Below are positions 1,165 to 20,133 of a DNA stretch of 22,854 nt, piece after piece. Where the stretch lies: the IMG/VR virus record IMGVR_UViG_644736359_000002; one strand, written 5' to 3'. The first letter of the stretch is position 1. The number at the start of each line of letters is the position of its first letter. A program made the translations under genes and the position numbers. The DNA comes from a virus. Its lineage: Duplodnaviria > Heunggongvirae > Uroviricota > Caudoviricetes. Under the pieces are notes generated by a model. It searched no databases. It worked only from the letters and a program-made list of their open reading frames with translations, and was not told the origin of the DNA.

Positions 1165-1391
1165 TTTCTTTCCTCTGTTATGCCATCACCCGCGCTCACC
1201 TGGACAGTATGCAGCGGAGACTGAAGCGCCGCAATGCAGGCTTGCCGTGTTGTGAGGTAAGGAGATTTTGGCTTGGTTGGATCTTTACGTGTTGCCTGTA
1301 GGCGGCCTGTTCGTATCCAGTTGGTGGCGGTTGGTCTGGATATCTTAAGAAACTGACAGGCCTCATCGAGTGTGAGGCTGTATGATTCCAT
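1020..1391 (-). CDS. xisD: Excisionase (P22 Xis-like), 123 aa from the ATG at 1389-1391; overlaps the integrase 5' end by 144 nt
   Basis: Internal Met of ORF 1020..1421 with upstream GAGGT; N-terminus [31 protein letters not shown] resembles P22-type Xis as recalled; position immediately upstream of int. Confidence 0.7.
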
Positions 1392-3863: not shown

Positions 3864-5390
3864 ATGAAAAAAGCCATAGCATATATGCGATTTTCATCAC
3901 CAGGTCAGATGTCTGGCGACTCATTAAACCGACAGAGAAGACTTATTGCTGAATGGTTAAAGGTAAATAGTGATTATTATCTTGATACCATAACATATGA
4001 AGATTTAGGATTAAGTGCATTCAAAGGAAAGCATGCACAATCAGGAGCTTTTTCGGAATTTTTAGATGCTATAGAGCATGGTTATATATTGCCAGGAACT
4101 ACATTGTTAGTTGAAAGTCTGGACAGACTTTCAAGAGAAAAAGTCGGTGAAGCGATTGAACGTCTGAAATTGATTTTGAATCACGGTATTGATGTTATAA
4201 CTCTTTGCGACAATACAGTCTATAATATTGACTCTTTGAATGAGCCATATTCATTAATAAAAGCCATACTTATAGCACAAAGGGCAAATGAAGAAAGCGA
4301 GATAAAGTCAAGTCGGGTTAAATTATCATGGAAGAAAAAACGGCAGGATGCACTGGAATCAGGTACGATTATGACGGCGTCTTGTCCGAGATGGCTCTCC
4401 TTAGATGACAAAAGAACGGCTTTTGTTCCAGACCCCGACAGGGTGAAAACTATTGAGCTAATTTTTAAACTCAGGATGGAAAGGCGCTCATTGAATGCAA
4501 TAGCCAAGTATTTAAATGATCATGCTGTAAAGAATTTCTCAGGAAAAGAAAGTGCATGGGGACCTTCTGTAATTGAAAAATTATTAGCGAATAAAGCTCT
4601 GATAGGTATATGCGTACCTTCATATCGTGCAAGAGGGAAAGGGATAAGTGAAATCGCTGGCTATTATCCCAGAGTCATATCAGATGATTTGTTTTACGCT
4701 GTACAGGAAATTCGGTTGGCACCTTTTGGTATTAGCAATAGTAGCAAGAATCCTATGCTAATAAATCTACTTCGAACAGTTATGAAGTGTGAGGCTTGTG
4801 GTAATACCATGATTGTTCATGCGGTATCTGGAAGTTTGCATGGCTATTATGTTTGTCCGATGAGAAGATTACATCGATGTGACAGGCCATCAATAAAAAG
4901 AGATTTGGTTGATTATAATATCATTAATGAATTGCTTTTTAATTGTAGCAAAATTCAACCAGTTGAAAACAAGAAAGATGCTAATGAAACTTTAGAGTTA
5001 AAAATTATTGAGCTTCAGATGAAAATTAATAATTTAATCGTTGCATTGTCTGTCGCGCCTGAAGTTACCGCTATAGCAGAGAAAATAAGACTATTAGATA
5101 AGGAATTACGAAGGGCTTCGGTATCATTGAAAACTTTGAAGAGTAAAGGTGTAAATTCATTCAGTGATTTTTATGCTATTGACTTAACCAGTAAAAATGG
5201 ACGAGAGTTATGCCGTACACTTGCCTATAAAACATTCGAAAAAATCATAATTAATACGGATAATAAAACCTGTGATATCTATTTTATGAATGGCATTGTT
5301 TTTAAACACTATCCTTTAATGAAAGTAATATCCGCCCAGCAGGCGATAAGTGCTCTCAAATATATGGTTGATGGTGAGATTTATTTCTAA
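3864..5390 (+). CDS. ybcK: Large serine recombinase (resolvase-type N-terminal catalytic domain plus recombinase and zinc-ribbon-like regions), 508 aa
   Basis: N-terminus MKKAIAYMRFSSPGQ...SLNRQRR...LLVESLDRLSR matches the serine-recombinase catalytic motif (nucleophile Ser in RFSS); cysteine-rich segment CEACGN...YYVCP...HRCDRP; AGGTG RBS 5 nt before the ATG at 3864; AT-rich codon usage. Confidence 0.88.
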   Translation: MKKAIAYMRFSSPGQMSGDSLNRQRRLIAEWLKVNSDYYLDTITYEDLGLSAFKGKHAQSGAFSEFLDAIEHGYILPGTTLLVESLDRLSREKVGEAIERLKLILNHGIDVITLCDNTVYNIDSLNEPYSLIKAILIAQRANEESEIKSSRVKLSWKKKRQDALESGTIMTASCPRWLSLDDKRTAFVPDPDRVKTIELIFKLRMERRSLNAIAKYLNDHAVKNFSGKESAWGPSVIEKLLANKALIGICVPSYRARGKGISEIAGYYPRVISDDLFYAVQEIRLAPFGISNSSKNPMLINLLRTVMKCEACGNTMIVHAVSGSLHGYYVCPMRRLHRCDRPSIKRDLVDYNIINELLFNCSKIQPVENKKDANETLELKIIELQMKINNLIVALSVAPEVTAIAEKIRLLDKELRRASVSLKTLKSKGVNSFSDFYAIDLTSKNGRELCRTLAYKTFEKIIINTDNKTCDIYFMNGIVFKHYPLMKVISAQQAISALKYMVDGEIYF

Positions 5391-9481: not shown

Positions 9482-9994
9482 GTAATCAGATTAGAACTGA
9501 TACACCAGACCTACAGCGACGATGTCGTCGGTATCAATACCAGCTGTTTTGGTAAACTTACTATCGTCAATTAAGTTGATTTTGTAATCAACAAAAGTGG
9601 ACATGTTTTTATTAAAGTAGTAAGTAGCACCGACATCGACATACTTGACTAAGTCTCGGTCACCATGAACACCAAGGTCTTTACCTTTTGACTGAAGGTA
9701 AGCAACAGATGGTCGCAGACCGAAGTCAAACTGATATTGTGCTACTGCTTCAAAGTTTTGTGCTTTGTTTGCAATATGGTTATTACCAAAAACGGTCATA
9801 TTCTGAGTTTCAGAATATGTGGTAGCCAGATAGATATTGTTCGCATCATATTTCAGGCCTGCAGCCCATACTTCCGCATTTTTGCCGGAGGCATTGAATT
9901 TGCTCTTACCATAGGCGACCTGACCGTCAGTGCGATCTGATTTAGCATAGGTTGCACCCACGCCGAATCCTTCATACTCATAAGTAGTGGAGAA

Positions 9995-10003
9995 ACCGAA
10001 ACC
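9995..10003. repeat. 9-bp target-site duplication ACCGAAACC (left copy)
   Basis: Identical 9-mer immediately flanks both IS1 ends. Confidence 0.9.
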
Positions 10004-10018
10004 GGTAATGACTCCAAC

Positions 10019-10522
10019 TTATTGATAGTGTTTTATGTTCAGATAATGCCCGATGACTTTGTCATGCAGCTCCACCGATTTTGAGAACGACAGCGACTTC
10101 CGTCCCAGCCGTGCCAGGTGCTGCCTCAGATTCAGGTTATGCCGCTCAATTCGCTGCGTATATCGCTTGCTGATTACGTGCAGCTTTCCCTTCAGGCGGG
10201 ATTCATACAGCGGCCAGCCATCCGTCATCCATATCACCACGTCAAAGGGTGACAGCAGGCTCATAAGACGCCCCAGCGTCGCCATAGTGCGTTCACCGAA
10301 TACGTGCGCAACAACCGTCTTCCGGAGCCTGTCATACGCGTAAAACAGCCAGCGCTGGCGCGATTTAGCCCCGACATAGCCCCACTGTTCGTCCATTTCC
10401 GCGCAGACGATGACGTCACTGCCCGGCTGTATGCGCGAGGTTACCGACTGCGGCCTGAGTTTTTTAAGTGACGTAAAATCGTGTTGAGGCCAACGCCCAT
10501 AATGCGGGCAGTTGCCCGGCAT
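10019..10522 (-). CDS. insB: IS1 InsB reading frame (transposase made as InsAB' by frameshifting)
   Basis: 167-aa ORF overlapping the insA 3' end, matching recalled IS1 InsB. Confidence 0.88.
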
Positions 10523-10716
10523 CCAACGCCATTCATGGCCATATCAATGATTTTCTGGTGCGTACCGGGTTGAGAAGCGGTGTAAGTGAACTGCAGTTGC
10601 CATGTTTTACGGCAGTGAGAGCAGAGATAGCGCTGATGTCCGGCGGTGCTTTTGCCGTTACGCACCACCCCGTCAGTAGCTGAACAGGAGGGACAGCTGA
10701 TAGAAACAGAAGCCAC
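10441..10716 (-). CDS. insA: IS1 InsA (91 aa)
   Basis: [43 protein letters not shown] recalled as IS1 InsA. Confidence 0.9.
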
Positions 10717-10771
10717 TGGAGCACCTCAAAAACACCATCATACACTAAATCAGTAAGTTGGCAGCATCACC

Positions 10772-10780
10772 ACCGAAACC
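10772..10780. repeat. 9-bp target-site duplication ACCGAAACC (right copy)
   Basis: Identical 9-mer immediately flanks both IS1 ends. Confidence 0.9.
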
Positions 10781-11938
10781 ATCACCATTGGCTTCAGTTA
10801 CGTCAGTGCGGTCATTTTTACCCTGATACTGAGCAGCAAAGTTCAGGCCATCGACCAGACCAAAGAAGTCGTTGTTACGATAGGTTGCAACACCAGTGGT
10901 GCGACCAGTCATGAACACATCTGTTTGGGTCCAGGTATCGCCACCGAATTCTGGCAGAACGTCAGTCCACGCACCGATGTCGTATGCTACACCGTAGTTA
11001 CGGCCGTAATCGATTGAGCCGTAGTCACCGAATTTCAGGCCTGCAAATGCAAGACGGGTTTTGTCTTTGGAGGAACCTTGAGATTCAGCGCGGTTGCCTT
11101 TGAATTCATATTCCCACTGACCGAAACCAGTCAGTTGATCGTTGATTTGGGTTTCACCTTTGAAGCCAAGACGGGCATAAGTAGTATCACCATCATCTGC
11201 ATCGTTAGAGGAAAAGTAGTGCTTGGCATTAACTTTCCCGTACAGATCCAGCTTGTTACTGTCTTTATTATAAATTTCAGCTGCCTGAGCAGACATCGCC
11301 ATCAGTACTGATGCAGCTACAGCAGAAATTGCCACTGTTAATTTTTTCATCGTGAGCCCTTTTTTTTGAACTATTATTAAAAAATGATGTCACTGCGCGA
11401 TAAATATTCATCTAATCAATGTGATTATTTCAAGATGTAAGTTTTAGTTTCTCATTTAATTTGTGAAGTAGATCTCTATTTTTATCTGAACTTTTTCTAT
11501 CGAAACCTATTTATGGCTCTTATTTGAACAAAAATAAACCTATTAGCTAATTTATATTAATGGCTGTTATTTATGGGGGTTCTATAATTCAGTGGTTTAA
11601 TTTAAATCAACTAAAAATAACGCCGGAAATTATTTATTGGTTATTTGTTGAGGTTTTCTTATATATTTGTGGTGGTGTTTTGAACACTCGGTAGCATTCT
11701 CATAAATATCATTCAGTGGTTTACGTACGTAAAAAATTGGTTATGCTGTTAAGAGTGGTTACTTCGTCACACAGCTTAAACCCGCCGTCGAGCTGGTTTT
11801 TCCATTTTTTGAGTCTCGATATTAGCTGATAACTCAATACCTGAGTTATTCACTGACTCCGAGTCTGTTACGTTTCTGCTTTTTTGCGATACGTTGTATT
11901 CCCTCAATTTACACCCGCTTTGTCTGCGAGGTGGGGTT

Positions 11939-13434: not shown

Positions 13435-13794
13435 CTTATTATCCTGCATTGTTAAAAACGGCAGAATCCTATGTGACAACAATTAAACGATAGTTAAATG
13501 GATTGATGAAAATTAAAACTATATAGGTGGATGCTCAGCCTATTGGAGGAGGGGGGGCACTCAGAATCCTGTGGAATGAAATAAACCGCTCTTTCTGTCC
13601 ATTACCCTTTTAGCTGCGCTGTATCGTCGCCGTATTCCCGCATTAACCATGACCGTAGCCCGACGGGGAATTCCTTCTGCGTGAGTGTGCGGGAATAATC
13701 AAAAACGATGCACACCGGGTTTTACTGTGCTGACAGACGCAGGGTTACCCTCATAGTCGCTTTTCCGGTGCGATGGTGGAAGAAACCGGGATGT

Positions 13795-13989
13795 TTATTC
13801 ATCATCACTCTGGATTGATGTATATGCTCTCTTTTCTGACGTTAGTCTCCGACGGCAGGCTTCAATGACCCAGGCTGAGAAATTCCCAGACCCTTTTTGC
13901 TCAAGAGCGATGTTAATTTGTTCAATCATTTGGTTAGGAAAGCGGATGTTGCGGGTTGTTGTTCTGCGGGTTCTGTTCTTAGTTGACAT
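13795..13989 (-). CDS. Small conserved lambda-right-end protein (64 aa), possibly ribbon-helix-helix-like
   Basis: ATG at 13987-13989; surrounding DNA closely resembles the lambda right end as recalled; function unknown. Confidence 0.5.
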   Translation of the reverse strand: MSTKNRTRRTTTRNIRFPNQMIEQINIALEQKGSGNFSAWVIEACRRRLTSEKRAYTSIQSDDE

Positions 13990-14188
13990 GAGGTTGCCCC
14001 GTATTCAGTGTCGCTGATTTGTATTGTCTGAAGTTGTTTTTACGTTAAGTTGATGCAGATCAATTAATACGATACCTGCGTCATAATTGATTATTTGACG
14101 TGGTTTGATGGCGTAGATGCACGTTGTGACATGTAGATGATAATTATTATCATTTTGCGGGTCCTTTCCGGCGATCCGACAGGTTACG

Positions 14189-14200
14189 GGGCGGCGACCT
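14189..14200. other. cosN cohesive-end sequence GGGCGGCGACCT (lambda-type cos); cosB-like region continues to the Nu1 start
   Basis: Exact 12-nt lambda cohesive-end sequence, preceded by ACAGGTTACG and followed by CGCGGGTTTTCGCTATTTATGAAAATTTTCCGGTTTAAGG, as at the lambda genome ends (recalled). Confidence 0.85.
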
Positions 14201-14377
14201 CGCGGGTTTTCGCTATTTATGAAAATTTTCCGGTTTAAGGCATTTCCGTTCTTCTTCGTCGTAACTTAATGTTTTTATTTAAAATACCCCCTGAAAAGAA
14301 AGGAAACGACAGGTGCTGAAAACGAGCTTTTGGGCCTCTGTCGTTTCCTTTCTCTGTTTTTGGCCGTGGAATGAACA

Positions 14378-14953
14378 ATGGAAGTCAACAAAAAGCAGCT
14401 GGCTGACATTTTCGGTGCGAGTATCCGTACCATTCAGAACTGGCAGGAACAGGGAATGCCCGTTCTGCGAGGCGGTGGCAAGGGTAATGAGGTGCTTTAT
14501 GACTCTGCCGCCGTTATAAGATGGTATGCCGAAAGGGATGCTGAAATTGAGAACGAAAAGCTGCGCCGGGAAGTTGAAGAACTGCGGCAGGCCAGCGAGA
14601 CAGATCTCCAGCCAGGGACTATTGAGTACGAACGCCATCGACTTACGCGTGCGCAGGCCGACGCACAGGAGCTGAAAAATGCCAGAGACTCCGCTGAAGT
14701 GGTGGAAACCGCATTCTGTACTTTCGTGCTGTCGCGGATCGCAGGTGAAATTGCCAGTATTCTCGACGGGATCCCCCTGTCGGTGCAGCGGCGTTTTCCG
14801 GAACTGGAAAACCGACATGTTGATTTCCTGAAACGGGATATCATCAAAGCCATGAACAAAGCAGCCGCGCTGGATGAACTGATACCCGAACACGGCACTG
14901 GTCGGCGTGCAGGTGGACTCGGAGCAGTTCGGCAGCCAGCAGGTGAGCCGTAA
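14378..14953 (+). CDS. nohD: Terminase small subunit Nu1 homologue with altered C-terminus (reads out of frame into J sequence after the deletion junction)
   Basis: [43 protein letters not shown]... recalled as near-identical to lambda Nu1 up to ...AAALDELIP; the final ~20 residues ([21 protein letters not shown]) are not Nu1-like. Confidence 0.8.
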
Positions 14954-17729
14954 TTATCATCTTCGCGGGCGCATTCTGCAGGTGCCGTCGAACTATAACC
15001 CGCAGACGCGGCAATACAGCGGTATCTGGGACGGAACGTTTAAGCCGGCATACAGCAACAACCCGGCCTGGTGTCTGTGGGATATGCTGACCCACCCGCG
15101 CTACGGCATGGGGAAACGTCTTGGTGCGGCGGATGTGGATAAATGGGCGCTGTATGTCATCGGCCAGTACTGCGACCAGTCAGTGCCGGACGGTTTTGGC
15201 GGCACGGAGCCGCGCATCACCTGTAATGCCTACCTGACCACGCAGCGTAAGGCGTGGGATGTGCTCAGTGATTTCTGCTCGGCGATGCGCTGTATGCCGG
15301 TATGGAACGGGCAGACGCTGACGTTCGTGCAGGACCGACCATCAGATAAGGTGTGGACCTATAACCGCAGTAATGTGGTGATGCCGGATGATGGCGCGCC
15401 GTTCCGCTACAGCTTCAGCGCCCTGAAGGACCGCCATAATGCCGTTGAGGTGAACTGGATTGACCCGAATAACGGCTGGGAGACGGCGACAGAGCTTGTT
15501 GAAGATACGCAGGCCATTCTCCGTTACGGTCGTAACGTCACGAAGATGGATGCCTTTGGCTGTACCAGCCGGGGGCAGGCACACCGCGCCGGGCTGTGGC
15601 TGATTAAAACGGAGCTGCTGGAAACGCAGACCGTGGACTTCAGCGTGGGTGCCGAAGGGCTTCGCCATGTACCGGGCGATGTCATTGAAATCTGCGATGA
15701 TGACTATGCCGGTATCCGCACCGGCGGGCGCGTGCTGGCGGTAAACAGCCAGACCCGGACGCTGACGCTCGACCGTGAAATCACGCTGCCATCTTCCGGC
15801 ACCACGCTGATAAGCCTGGTTGACGGGCAGGGGAGTCCGGTCAGCGTGGAGGTTCAGTCCGTCACCGACGGCGTGAAGGTGAAAGTGAGCCGTGTTCCTG
15901 ACGGCGTTGCTGAATACAGCGTATGGGGGCTGAAGCTGCCGACGTTGCGCCAGCGCCTGTTCCGCTGCGTGAGTATCCGTGAGAACGACGACGGCACGTA
16001 TGCCATCACCGCCGTGCAGCATGTACCGGAAAAAGAGGCCATCGTGGATAACGGGGCGCACTTTGACGGCGACCAGAGCGGCACGGTAAATGGTGTCACG
16101 CCGCCAGCGGTGCAGCACCTGACCGCAGAAGTCACCGCAGACAGCGGGGAATACCAGGTGCTGGCCCGCTGGGATACGCCGAAGGTGGTGAAGGGCGTGA
16201 GCTTCCTGCTTCGCCTGACCGTGGCAGCGGATGACGGCCGTGAGCGACTGGTCAGCACGGCCCGGACGACGGAAACCACTTACCGCTTCACACAACTGGC
16301 TCTGGGGAACTACAGGCTGACAGTCCGGGCAGTAAATGCGTGGGGGCAGCAGGGCGAGCCGGCGTCGGTATCGTTCCGGATTGCCGCACCGGCAGCGCCG
16401 TCGCAGATTGAGCTGACACCGGGGTATTTTCAGATAACCGCCACGCCGCATCTTGCGGTTTATGATCCGACGGTACAGTTTGAGTTCTGGTTCTCGGAAA
16501 AGCGGATTGCGGATATCAGGCAGGTTGAAACCACAGCACGCTATCTTGGCACGGCGCTGTACTGGATAGCCGCCAGTATCAATATCAAACCGGGCCATGA
16601 TTATTATTTTTACATCCGCAGTGTGAACACCGTTGGCAAATCGGCATTCGTGGAGGCTGTTGGCCAGCCGAGTGATGATGCATCCGGCTATCTGAATTTT
16701 TTCAAAGGAGAGATAGGGAAAACCCATCTGGCTCAGGAGTTGTGGACGCAGATTGATAACGGTCAGCTTGCGCCTGACCTGGCGGAAATCAGAACGTCCA
16801 TCACGGATGTCAGTAATGAAATCACGCAGACCGTCAATAAGAAACTGGAAGACCAGAGTGCGGCAATCCAGCAGATACAGAAGGTTCAGGTTGATACAAA
16901 TAATAACCTGAACAGCATGTGGGCTGTGAAGCTGCAGCAGATGCAGGACGGACGCCTTTATATCGCGGGTATTGGTGCCGGTATTGAGAATACCCCTGAC
17001 GGTATGCAGAGTCAGGTGCTGCTGGCGGCGGACAGGATTGCGATGATTAATCCTGCGAATGGCAACACAAAGCCGATGTTTGTTGGTCAGGGCGATCAGA
17101 TATTCATGAACGAAGTGTTCCTGAAATATCTGACGGCTCCCACCATTACCAGCGGCGGTAATCCTCCGGCATTTTCCCTGACACCGGACGGGCGGCTGAC
17201 GGCGAAAAATGCCGATATTAGCGGTAACGTGAATGCGAACTCCGGGACGCTCAACAACGTCACGATTAACGAGAACTGCCGGGTTCTGGGAAAACTGTCC
17301 GCGAACCAGATTGAAGGCGATCTCGTTAAAACAGTGGGCAAAGCTTTCCCCCGGGACTCCCGTGCACCGGAGCGGTGGCCATCAGGGACCATTACCGTCA
17401 GGGTTTATGACGATCAGCCGTTTGACCGGCAAATTGTTATTCCGGCGGTGGCATTCAGTGGCGCTAAACATGAGCAAGATCATACTGATATCTACTCCTC
17501 ATGCCGTCTGATAGTACGAAAAAACGGTGCTGAAATTTATAACCGAACGGCTCTGGATAATACGCTGATATATACGGGTGTTATTGATATGCCTGCAGGC
17601 AGTGGTGTAATGACACTGGAATTTTCTGTATCGGCATGGCTGGTAAATGGCTGGTATCCCACAGCAAGTATCAGCGATTTGCTGGTTGTGGTGATGAAGA
17701 AAGCCACTGCAGGCATCATGATTAGCTGA
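14883..17729 (+). pseudogene. N-terminally truncated tail tip/host-specificity protein J (lambda J from about residue 190 to the C-terminus), no native start or RBS
   Basis: Frame opens right after a stop at 14880-14882 and reads [41 protein letters not shown]..., recalled as internal lambda J sequence; the last ~150 residues differ from lambda J. Confidence 0.85.
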
Positions 17730-17747
17730 ATTTTATAACCCAGATAC

Positions 17748-17774
17748 GGGCGCCAGAAATGGCGCCTTTTTTAT
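17748..17774 (+). terminator. Candidate intrinsic terminator between J and the side-tail-fibre gene
   Basis: GGGCGCC (17748-17754), loop AGAAAT, GGCGCC (17761-17766), then TTTTTT. Confidence 0.55.
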
Positions 17775-17787
17775 TTGTGGAGTGAAT

Positions 17788-20133
17788 ATGGCAGTACAGA
17801 TTTCAGGTGTGCTGAAAGATGGTGCGGGAAAACCAATACAGAACTGCACTATTCAACTGAAGGCAAAGCGTAACAGCACCACGGTACTGGTGAACACGGT
17901 GGCCTCTGAAAATCCGGATGAAGCCGGGCGTTACAGCATGGATGTTGAGCATGGCCAGTACAGCGTCACCCTGCTGGTTGAAGGTTTTCCGCCTTCACAT
18001 GCCGGAACCATTACCGTCTATGAAGGTTCCAGACCAGGTACGCTGAATGATTTTCTCGGTGCCATGACGGAAGATGATGTCATGCCGGAGGCATTGCGTC
18101 GTTTTGAGGCAATGGTGGAAGAAGCGGCACGCAACGCCGAAGCCGCCTCTCAGAGCGCAGCGGCGGCAAAGAAATCCGAAACTGCAGCGGCATCATCGAA
18201 GAACGCGGCGAAAACCTCAGAAACGAATGCAGCTAACAGCGCACAGGCGGCAGCGTCCTCGCAGACTGCATCGGCAAACTCCGCGACAGCAGCCAAAAAA
18301 TCAGAAACCAACGCGAAAAACAGCGAGACAGCCGCAAAGACGAGCGAAACCAACGCAAAGTCCAGCCAGACGGCAGCGAAAACCAGCGAAACGAATGCCA
18401 AAGCCAGTGAAACTGCGGCGAAAAATAGCCAGAATGCAGCAGCCGAAAGCGAGAGCGCGGCAGCCGGTTCTGCGACTGCAGCAGCTGGATCAGCAACTGC
18501 TGCGGCTAACAGCCAGAAAGCAGCGAAGACGAGCGAAACTAACGCAAAGTCCAGCCAGACGGCAGCGAAGACCAGCGAAACAAATGCCAAAGCCAGCGAA
18601 ACTGCGGCGAAAAGCAGTCAGGATGCAGCAGCCGAAAGCGAGAGTGCTGCAGCTGGTTCTGCAAGTGCGGCGGCTGCTTCTGCCACTGCATCAGCAAACA
18701 GTCAAAAAGCTGCAAAAACCAGTGAAACCAATGCAAAGACAAGCGAGACTGCAGCGGCGAACTCGGCGCAAGCATCGGCAGCAAGCCAGACAGCAGCTAA
18801 AGCAAGTGAGGATGCAGCCAGAGAGTATGCAAGCCAGGCAGCAGAGCCGTATAAATATGTCTTACAGCCACTGCCTGATGTGTGGATACCGTTTAACGAT
18901 TCACTGGATATGCTTGCTGGCTTTTCGCCTGGTTATAAGCAAATAACCGTAGGTGATGATGTTATTAAAATGCCATCCGATAAGGTTGTTAGCTTCAAAC
19001 GCGCATCAGGTGCAACATACATTAATAAATCAGGTGTATTAACCGTTGCTGAAGTTGACGAACCGCGATTTGAACGAGAAGGTTTGCTGATTGAAGGACA
19101 GAGAACAAACTATTTCAGAAATTCAAATACACCAGAAGCATGGAATAACACGGGTAGTGTGTCTGTTGAGTCGTTCGACAGTGATAAGGGGTTTAACTAT
19201 GGAAGGATAACTGTTATTAATGAAAATCCGACAGCACAAGGATATCAGGCAATTGCTGTAAACACGAATGATGCTTACACCTGCCCGGCAGGTTCTTATA
19301 CGACGATATCGTGTCTGACGAAAAGTGATAATTCCCGGTGTCGTGCAAGGTTCGGAAAAATGTCTGATAATGGTGCGTTTGTTTTTCATTCAGATGCAGT
19401 TCTGGATCCTGTTACGGGAAATGTTGTTCATGGAAATAATGTGACGGTGACGGCAGAAAGAGTCGGTGAATGGTGGTTGTTTACCGCCACTCTTTTTGCA
19501 GATGCGGAAATGATAATCAGCTCAAGATTTGAAATCCTGGCGATGCCTGGAATCAGTATTATCCCCAATGGCTCTACGTTAGATATTGCGATGCCTCAGG
19601 CGGAGATTGGGTCGTACAGGACGTCATTTATCATTACTGAAGGGGCTCCTGGCACTCGCTCCAGCGACATGGTGACAATACCTGTAAGAAACAATATTCA
19701 CCGATTACCATTCAGTGCTCTTGTTGAAGTTAATAAAAACTGGGATATCCCTCCCAGCAAATCACCATTAATCTTTAATGTTAAAGATTATCAGGAAAAT
19801 GGTCTGTTCACGCATGGATTCCGTGGTAATAATTTCTCTGATGCCGGTTCTCCTTTTATTTCTATGGGAGGGTGTAATAAATATGTGGCAACAACCCAGA
19901 GGAAAATCATTTCAGGCTTCCGTTGTGGCGCTGATGGAGATGTTCAGGCCGTATGTAATGGTGAATTATCTGTTGCGGCAAAAACAACATGGACTTCAAT
20001 TGTTCCACGGGCAGTATTGCGAATTGGAGGGCAGGGCACTAATGGGGAGTATCATCTTTTTGGTCATATCCGTAATCTGCGTATCTGGCATAAAGAATTA
20101 ACTGATGCGCAAATGGGGGAGAGTATTAAATGA
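17788..20133 (+). CDS. Side tail fibre protein, mosaic: lambda Stf-like N-terminus, Ala/Ser/Thr-rich repeat region, C-terminal domain with a LamG/concanavalin-like signature
   Basis: MAVQISGVLKDGAGKPIQNCTIQLKAKRNSTTV... resembles the lambda Stf N-terminus as recalled; GGAG RBS before the ATG at 17788; C-terminus ...NGEYHLFGHIRNLRIWHKELTDAQM resembles the LamG-type domain tail motif. Confidence 0.8.
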   Translation: MAVQISGVLKDGAGKPIQNCTIQLKAKRNSTTVLVNTVASENPDEAGRYSMDVEHGQYSVTLLVEGFPPSHAGTITVYEGSRPGTLNDFLGAMTEDDVMPEALRRFEAMVEEAARNAEAASQSAAAAKKSETAAASSKNAAKTSETNAANSAQAAASSQTASANSATAAKKSETNAKNSETAAKTSETNAKSSQTAAKTSETNAKASETAAKNSQNAAAESESAAAGSATAAAGSATAAANSQKAAKTSETNAKSSQTAAKTSETNAKASETAAKSSQDAAAESESAAAGSASAAAASATASANSQKAAKTSETNAKTSETAAANSAQASAASQTAAKASEDAAREYASQAAEPYKYVLQPLPDVWIPFNDSLDMLAGFSPGYKQITVGDDVIKMPSDKVVSFKRASGATYINKSGVLTVAEVDEPRFEREGLLIEGQRTNYFRNSNTPEAWNNTGSVSVESFDSDKGFNYGRITVINENPTAQGYQAIAVNTNDAYTCPAGSYTTISCLTKSDNSRCRARFGKMSDNGAFVFHSDAVLDPVTGNVVHGNNVTVTAERVGEWWLFTATLFADAEMIISSRFEILAMPGISIIPNGSTLDIAMPQAEIGSYRTSFIITEGAPGTRSSDMVTIPVRNNIHRLPFSALVEVNKNWDIPPSKSPLIFNVKDYQENGLFTHGFRGNNFSDAGSPFISMGGCNKYVATTQRKIISGFRCGADGDVQAVCNGELSVAAKTTWTSIVPRAVLRIGGQGTNGEYHLFGHIRNLRIWHKELTDAQMGESIK
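18352..18729 (+). repeat. Tandem duplication, 2 x 189 bp (63 codons), within the tail-fibre gene
   Basis: Unit beginning AACGCAAAGTCCAGCCAGACGGCAGCG recurs at 18352 and 18541; the copies encode near-identical TNAKSSQTAAKTSETNAKASETAAK... segments. Confidence 0.8.

Follow-up and report, generated by a model that had tools for sequence, protein, structure and literature searches.

Why should a prophage that has lost every head gene still carry a complete λ-type cos site and nearly all of nu1? We examined this question for a locus in IMG/VR record IMGVR_UViG_644736359_000002, a stretch of 22,854 nt that was analysed at its full length (the window). Chromosomes of E. coli B and its derivatives match the window at 100% over all 22,854 nt; by this identity, by annotation and by synteny with K-12, it is the argU-linked cryptic lambdoid prophage DLP12 in its E. 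coli B form (DLP12-B). That DLP12 holds a cos site and a Nu1 homologue is already known from annotation, and in K-12 these are usable by λ. A sequence-only reading of the window had likened the locus to a helper-dependent satellite. The evidence below points to a different answer, i.e., that the feature is very probably the known cos/nohD relic of DLP12, spared by a recurrent breakpoint within nu1 and by exchange at cos, and not a satellite.

The cohesive-end sequence GGGCGGCGACCT was matched exactly once in the window, at 14189–14200 (0.05 matches expected). Window 13778–14886 aligned colinearly to λ 48092–48502 plus 1–699; 33 of the 1110 columns differed, none of them from λ 48487 to 53. The parts of a λ-type cos were all found: cosN with its flanks, cosQ upstream, and the R3-I1-R2-R1 array of cosB downstream. 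The heptamer GGGTCCT is the presumed cosQ (Wieczorek and Feiss), and the coordinates given for R3 within cosB are likewise presumed. Among 8 remnant and phage copies, cosN was invariant, as were the R cores of cosB in 7 of the 8. Apart from the G54A substitution in R3, the cos-region differences to λ downstream of cosN sit in spacers; λ positions 53 and 54, both within R3, vary among remnants, and the allele of the window occurs also in PhiR42_1, a complete 48.7-kb phage with intact nu1 and A. Over the 897 nt compared with PhiR42_1, differences were found only at 14070 and 14134, and the 752 nt from 14135 to 14886 (cosQ, cosN, cosB and nu1 codons 1–170) were base-for-base identical. Judged from these alignments, the cos of the window is a complete cos of λ specificity, identical to that of a phage; the claims that the exact cohesive-end sequence and its flanking cos sequence had been kept were borne out.

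Downstream of cos, the first 170 of the 181 residues of Nu1 are encoded by 14378–14886, followed by a 21-residue out-of-frame tail from J DNA. The resulting 191-aa open reading frame (ORF) covers the whole of Pfam Phage_Nu1 (positions 1–164 of 164, E=3e-101) and matches the solved Nu1 DNA-binding domain (PDB 1J9I and 6HN7). What is expected of a functional small terminase subunit (TerS) was found for the N-terminal winged-helix DNA-binding part and the full Nu1 family domain; the native C-terminus and a cognate gpA were not found, the last 11 residues being replaced and gene A absent. The earlier description of a retained DNA-binding N-terminal part was right as far as it went, but it was too narrow. 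The junction joins λ nu1 nt 699 to J nt 16136, with nu1 ...GAACTGATACC joined to J ...CGAACACGG; since the parental J reads ...GTGCTACC/CGAAC (here and below a slash marks a junction), the break lies within a TACC microhomology. No gene from A to I is present by annotation and by alignment to λ, in agreement with the claim that every head and assembly gene was lost. The deletion had been described as reaching the middle of J; its right end is in fact in the first fifth of that gene, at about codon 211 of 1132, and the remaining J' is 94% identical to λ 16135–18002.

The left end of this deletion recurs. In E. coli genomes and metagenomes, at least 45 different Nu1 fusions or junctions have their break at λ nt 697–699, in the context CTGATA/CC and 12–14 nt upstream of gene A's GTG start, and the window junction at 14883–14886 falls inside this recurrent breakpoint. 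In a protein search with the 191-aa ORF, fusion classes were counted among the best 120 matches: 26 classes broke after residue 169, 4 after 168 and 5 after 170, compared with 4 classes for residues 165–167, about 9 for 172–181, and 3 (plus one contig-end partial) for 145–149; between residues 150 and 164 there was none but one contig-end partial. Counted as distinct fusion proteins, roughly 33 have their break after residues 168–170. The partners were A, B, C/Nu3, E, FI, FII, Z, V, K, I, J, lom, stf, tfa, an integrase and a major facilitator superfamily (MFS) transporter, and the right ends were spread over more than 22 kb, from λ 751 to 22390 and beyond. An exact-pattern scan, using the 21-mer that ends at λ 697 with the next base not C, found 15 IMG/VR loci (4 with a single-nucleotide polymorphism (SNP) allele and 11 junctions), 15 metagenome contigs and 2 genome contigs; the pattern ATACC followed by non-G added 7 IMG/VR loci. 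Intact copies of the hotspot pattern numbered more than 120. By the identical scan design, the control TA sites at λ 653, 572, 735 and 847 (the last with the same ATA/CC context as the hotspot) gave 0, 1 (a SNP), 0 and 0 matches, i.e., 18 IMG/VR junction loci at nt 697/699 versus 0 at the four control sites. The possibility, left open in the sequence-only reading, that retention was due to chance is contradicted by so sharp and recurrent a left end.

The two sides of these junctions are not equivalent. No match in the scan was of the reciprocal class, which would keep CCGGGGTTGCTGAG... after a base other than A. The partner flank ended in TA in 20 of the 25 λ-mappable junctions (TA makes up 3.1% of dinucleotides in λ 700–23000), and G was present at −4 of the partner sites in 68% versus 35%; on the retained partner side, no significant homology was found in the λ-mapped junctions. 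The joined partners were all in direct orientation. Among complete E. coli genomes, Nu1/tail-fibre junctions were present in 189, Nu1/lom in about 17–19 and Nu1/Z in 4, the junction classes being lineage-restricted. Of the 319 records whose nu1-A junction is not intact, 5 rows were sampled, and 4 of these end at λ 697–702. The most common E. coli allele, the K-12-type nohD plus A', has its junction (A 1018/tfa 22119) outside the hotspot. A literature search found no paper on the nu1 breakpoint, which does not prove that the breakpoint is unpublished.

Several observations were made alongside these counts. A minor second cluster of fusions is broken after residues 146–149, ...GAACTGGAA/, at λ ~628–637 (window ~14816–14825); the hexamer GAACTG is common to this cluster and the main hotspot, and GGCGTTTTCCGG, just upstream of the minor cluster, would resemble a cosB R element. 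Deletion into the host gene ydfJ in L009 (6001–6975) makes a 324-aa Nu1-MFS transporter fusion ORF. In L010 (6001–7999) and L011 (5178–7176), Nu1(1–169) is in frame with the C-terminal 116 aa of a tyrosine integrase, and downstream of the fusion come alpA, a TIR-domain gene and then J'; this locus resembles what a helper-embedded satellite or defence island within a lambdoid late region would leave behind when cut by a hotspot deletion. The exact 21-mer flank followed by unrelated sequence was found as well in a Myxococcales metagenome-assembled genome contig (L029) and in an Erwinia sp. contig (L030), which may represent bin contamination or real lambdoid remnants.

A second process appears to have acted on the same stretch. 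The comparison at cosN took in the window plus loci L005, L013, L006 and L012. In the 420 nt left of cosN, DLP12-B showed 54 differences from K-12 Qin and 16 from K-12 DLP12; in the 697 nt to the right, it showed 0 differences from Qin nohA and 13 from K-12 DLP12. An O27:H7 DLP12-like remnant gave, left and right of cosN, 0 and 14 differences from K-12 DLP12 and 53 and 3 from Qin. By these counts, sequence ancestry changes at or beside cosN, and does so repeatedly; such a switch would mean that cos escapes decay by being overwritten from active phages or sister remnants. Exchange at this place has been seen in the laboratory: a 3.3-kb, 98% identical patch shared by λ and K-12 DLP12 spans R-Rz-cos-nu1-A', λ-DLP12 recombinants were about a hundred-fold commoner than the roughly 2×10−6 for Rac and Qin, 10 of 19 sequenced junctions adjoined cos, and all recombinants were viable, including those that carried DLP12 nu1, which is functional in λ (PMC3945230). 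Its authors proposed that terminase also cuts the K-12 DLP12 cos (PMC3945230). The cos patch was the dominant crossover site in Red crosses (PMC545071), and phage 434B holds about 5.5 kb of DLP12 (PMC9119081).

We suggest that the two processes would together account for the survival of cos and nu1 in DLP12-B. The deletion from A to J would have begun at the recurrent nu1 nt 697–699, by construction leaving cos and 169–170 codons, and the stretch so left would have been repeatedly overwritten from active phages or sister remnants; it seems that host selection for cos function need not be assumed. The cos would then be a cis-acting relic, still open to binding and cutting by a λ-specificity terminase that an infecting or co-resident phage supplies. 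From its sequence and by analogy to the K-12 homologue, action of a helper terminase on the E. coli B DLP12 cos is plausible; to this extent the proposal that another phage's terminase handles the element stands, but mobilisation of the element was not supported. The main effect would be a double-strand break which, with the 1.1-kb homology patch, leads to exchange of DNA between phage and remnant at cos; such exchange has been shown experimentally for K-12 DLP12. With no second cos, in-situ packaging that set out from the window cos in the direction of J'-stf-appY-ompT would be abortive.

What makes the breakpoint is a separate question. A fixed left end, scattered right ends, one-sided TA, GATA or TACC homology and no reciprocals are what would be expected from a defined 3' end (...GATA-3' or ...GATACC-3') serving as primer in microhomology repair, with the DNA to the right of the 3' end lost beforehand. 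Selection on Nu1 or against gpA fragments was judged insufficient, since the K-12-type allele keeps 103 A codons and others break at 145–149 or 165. Tentatively, and with less than even confidence, we propose that λ nu1 697–699 is the site of a site-specific one-sided DNA end that is repaired by TA-anchored microhomology priming, so that λ-type prophages are repeatedly turned into head-less remnants with cos and ~170 nu1 codons, and that the E. coli B junction in the window is one product of such biased prophage decay. The end could be a nick, a cleavage complex or a replication stall, and its maker a phage terminase acting at a cosN-like half-site or a host enzyme. As ideas suggested by the sequence, it might be a terminase nick at a cosN-like half-site (TACC^GGGG versus TACG^GGGC), the 4-nt stagger (^GATA^) of a type II topoisomerase, or a replication stall just upstream of the A start.

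Several other candidates for the end-maker were considered. A hairpin or cruciform at the breakpoint was rejected upon folding λ 660–800 on both strands (z-scores 0.6 and 0.0). A hidden transposon end was rejected as ...GATGAACTGATA has neither an inverted-repeat partner inside 1.5 kb nor another copy in the window; likeness to IS elements was not found among the fusion tails. Recombination by integrase at attR was rejected, since the right end of L009 lies in ydfJ, 808 nt past the Qin-type prophage boundary annotated in K-12, and since the prophages carry different integrases. An attachment site of helper-embedded satellites was rejected as well, the 14 target sites of the published clade, in A, B, C, E, V, T, H, L and J, including none in nu1 (bioRxiv 10.1101/2022.07.18.500453). 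The int'-alpA-TIR partner of L010/L011 is just one of the sequences deleted into. A gyrase stagger T^GATA^C stays a candidate: among the listed Topo-Seq sites none that is trusted lies at the W3110 coordinates, but these were guessed and the sequence is repeated in the genome, and the partner sites do show the G at −4 noted above. A Chi-like RecBCD stop would have to be GCTGGATG (6/8, λ 682–689), the only candidate, and is judged unlikely. Other leads are no more than candidates: a 22/38 likeness of λ 700–737 to the Tn3 38-bp inverted repeat, a FokI-type GGATG(9/13) site, a phiX-ori-like AACTGATA, and an invertase-like ACC-NN-GGTT core.

The reading of DLP12-B as a helper-dependent cos satellite or island supposes that IntD excises the element, that the terminase of a λ-type helper packages it, perhaps as a 49-kb dimer, and that it is so transferred. 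It can draw upon a complete, phage-identical cos, an intact integrase (as had been claimed), both att repeats, and the length (2 × 24.5 kb makes 101% of that of λ). Precedents can be added: a plasmid with only a cloned λ cos was transferred by λ and φ80 (PMC6739421), the terminase-defective prophage Sp4 was packaged in trans via an identical cos (PMC2669165), and a review counts DLP12-like prophages as possible proto-hitchers (PMC11389934). We nonetheless hold it to be very unlikely. The hallmarks of cos-type satellites, including phage-inducible chromosomal islands (PICIs), comprise an integrase, AlpA-type control, a replication module and a length of about 10–15 kb (PMC6739421; bioRxiv 10.1101/2022.07.18.500453), with a cosB that differs from the helper's and is read through Rpp (PMC6739421). 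K-12 DLP12 excises in fewer than 1 in 10^5 cells, is not SOS-inducible and is not induced by mitomycin C (PMC3105296). Of the hallmarks, DLP12-B has the integrase with its att sites only. The replication module is absent, a P fragment and ren being all that is annotated; O, ori, cI, cro, N, alpA and any antirepressor or AlpA-type regulator are missing from the annotated element; no Rpp, PICI-type cosB, capsid-size redirection or extra Nu1-like gene was found; and the size is 24.5 kb. The excisionase, which had been taken to be intact, is annotated only as a helix-turn-helix (HTH) pseudogene fragment; xisD of K-12 is annotated as a pseudogene too, and a 56-aa ORF at 1196–1366, near this remnant, had no Pfam match. 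The packaging of λ requires a cos-cos spacing of roughly 38–51 kb, and a non-replicating 24.5-kb circle gives no cos-cos substrate of packageable length. The suggestion that a dimer could fit a λ head was correct in its arithmetic (49.1 kb), but without replication there would be no dimers or concatemers to package.

If no satellite, the locus could be an inert relic, in which cos and nu1' persist by chance as neutral leftovers on which nothing acts. Decay of DLP12-B is indeed far advanced (its porin gene holds IS1, and xis, exo, P and J are pseudogenes), and the B-type Nu1/J junction was present in 36 of 5426 complete genomes, those listed matching at essentially 100% identity, so that this comparison has no power to detect constraint at cos. 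Yet at least 45 independent junctions share the left breakpoint and the neighbouring sites have none, 752 nt equal those of a live phage, the mosaic boundary falls exactly at cosN, and the K-12 homologue is demonstrably used by λ (PMC3945230), which leaves this explanation improbable. Rightward packaging of host genes (appY-ompT-envY-nfrA) into doc-type particles, upon cutting of the chromosomal cos by a helper terminase, is in keeping with the orientation of cos, which puts J', stf, appY and ompT downstream; such particles reportedly arise by in-situ packaging from unexcised λ prophages, which is established (Little and Gottesman 1971; Sternberg and Weisberg 1975). With no second cos 38–51 kb downstream, however, packaging would not terminate properly, and we think such transfer unlikely. 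Still less probable is that cos and nu1' were kept for interference of the Ppi/Rpp kind, with Nu1 minus its last 11 residues binding cosB and dimerising, unable to engage gpA, and so poisoning the terminase of a superinfecting phage. The Pfam Nu1 domain is still complete and the DNA-binding domain is there too, precisely residues 1–169/170 survive in many independent remnants, and Rpp has a TerS DNA-binding fold and works by heterodimerising with TerS (PMC6739421); but protein selection cannot account for a breakpoint sharp to 1–3 nt, the appended tails are random (12 to >150 aa), expression of nu1' is only putative, and K-12-type nohD, the allele found most often in E. coli, has its full length and serves λ as a normal Nu1 (PMC3945230).

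Some points weigh against explaining the locus as a relic spared by breakpoint and exchange. The integrase and att repeats are intact and K-12 DLP12 does excise, if very rarely, so rare helper-assisted transfer is possible. We infer the function of cos in E. coli B from phage identity and the K-12 homologue, and the retention of cos and nu1 as a by-product of the deletion mechanism likewise; R3 is one base off λ, though PhiR42_1 has the same change, and binding at R3 is only predicted. From its sequence the truncated Nu1 should be assumed neither inert nor active, and two-sided selection in a very narrow window of nu1 is still formally conceivable.

To file DLP12-B as a satellite would be to mis-file it. 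Since sequence ancestry switches exactly at cosN, the chromosomal cos sites of dead prophages appear to act as exchange points, which supports the notion of cryptic prophages as recombination reservoirs for live phages. The same left nucleotide in many independent deletions means that prophage decay is non-random here. Should a defined enzyme make the nu1 end, this would offer a new handle on how lambdoid prophages become disarmed and bear on the commonness of lysis-cos-nu1-tail-fibre remnants in E. coli; biased decay, if true, would keep chromosomal cos sites available to phages and could feed proto-satellites.

Features of the window, and hotspot junctions in other loci (positions are those of the window or, for the lower rows, of the locus named)
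Feature	Position	Strand	Basis or detail
intD integrase, full length, 387 aa	1..1164	-	RefSeq annotation; complete Pfam integrase domain
Excisionase remnant, 63-nt HTH pseudogene fragment	1329..1391	-	RefSeq annotation
Replication gene P, C-terminal fragment, 82 codons	2665..2910	+	RefSeq annotation
cosQ heptamer GGGTCCT (presumed), intact (λ 48473-48479)	14159..14165	+	identical to λ in alignment
cosN, 12-nt cohesive-end sequence GGGCGGCGACCT at 14189-14200 plus flanks	14184..14205	.	exact match; λ alignment
cosB R3 element (λ 51-66, presumed), one substitution G54A	14239..14254	+	alignment to λ
cosB R2 + R1, inverted pair of Nu1-binding repeats	14297..14353	.	26-nt arms, 85% complementary
nu1' ORF, 191 aa, NohD/NohA-type	14378..14953	+	Pfam; structure matches; λ alignment
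Deletion junction, TACC microhomology, 15.4-kb deletion relative to λ	14883..14886	+	alignment to λ
J' pseudogene, C-terminal four-fifths of tail-tip protein	14887..17729	+	RefSeq TipJ family, N-terminus missing
Hotspot sequence in nu1			CTGATACC
L006 junction	6299		...CTGATA/ACCGCG, joined to Z
L007 junction	6299		...CTGATA/AAGCGC, joined to tail-fibre gene, remnant adjoining bioA
L009 junction	6507		...CTGATA/TCCGAT, joined to interior of host gene ydfJ
L010 junction (also L011)	6507		...CTGATA/ACGGAT, joined to interior of integrase gene that precedes alpA + TIR gene
L012 junction	6507		...CTGATA/TCGACT, joined to lom

The remainder of the element agrees with DLP12 in gene content and order (intD...emrE-ybcK...quuD-porin-essD-rrrD-rzpD-bor-ylcI-nu1...appY-ompT). 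In NZ_CP115178 the order is tRNA-Arg, intD, pseudogene fragments (HTH/xis, Dam methylase, P), ren, emrE, ybcK, ybcL, ybcM, ybcN, ninE, ybcO, rusA, quuD, the IS1-split porin gene, essD, rrrD, rzpD, iss/bor, ylcI, the "terminase small subunit", the TipJ (J) pseudogene, tail-fibre genes and appY; the genes for replication, immunity, excisionase, head and tail shaft have been lost. The tRNA-Arg gene argU lies 16 nt from intD, as expected of the DLP12 integration site, and the att repeats, a 50-nt direct repeat of the argU 3' end in two copies 98% identical and 24,539 bp apart, both sit (attL and attR) just outside the window. Three further observations concern genes outside the cos region. The porin gene (nmpC/ompC-like, window 9491–11350) is split in E. 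coli B by IS1A, with the transposase at 10019–10716; in K-12 DLP12 this gene has IS5 at another position, and several related strains have it whole. The ybcK gene (window 3864–5390), whose product is a large serine recombinase of 508 aa (Resolvase, Recombinase and zinc-ribbon domains), is placed with emrE, ylcJ, ybcL and ybcM between ren and the nin region, where these genes may represent a separate inserted cargo module. The gene for a 783-aa side tail fibre holds two tandem 189-nt copies, 84% identical, at window 18280–18657 (22280–22657 in L001).

Of the known systems, the closest is K-12 DLP12 (qsr'; cos, nohD, aaaD), which shares with the window the argU site, intD, a left arm that is 99% identical, the order Q-porin-lysis-bor-ylcI-cos-nu1, the λ-type cos and the loss of head genes. 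The two differ in that K-12 DLP12 has a full nohD (181 aa) plus 103 A codons fused to tfaD (λ 1018/22119), whereas in E. coli B the break falls at nu1 nt 699, with J', stf and tfa retained; identity is only 93% in the lysis region and 97.9% in cos-nu1, and DLP12-B has the Qin/nohA allele to the right of cosN, IS1 and not IS5 in the porin gene, and lacks ybcV and ybcW. Qin of K-12 (nohA, cos) equals the window over the 697 nt right of cosN, and its head genes are likewise deleted with nu1 fused to tail-fibre DNA, but it lies at the ydfJ locus, its junction is at λ nt 719 (...GAATATA/ACCGCG), and it shows 54 differences from the window in the 420 nt left of cosN. Sp4 of E. coli O157 Sakai (nu1::ISEc8) resembles DLP12-B in having no working terminase of its own, the Sp14 terminase packaging it via an identical cos (PMC2669165); unlike DLP12-B, it still excises, replicates and has morphogenesis genes. 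The cos-type Gram-negative PICIs (EcCICFT073), which are packaged by λ or φ80 terminase (PMC6739421), and the helper-embedded satellites are comparable in bearing an integrase and a λ-resembling cosQ/cosN (PMC6739421; bioRxiv 10.1101/2022.07.18.500453), but unlike DLP12-B they have alpA, a module for replication and a cosB of their own with Rpp, and they measure about 10–15 kb.

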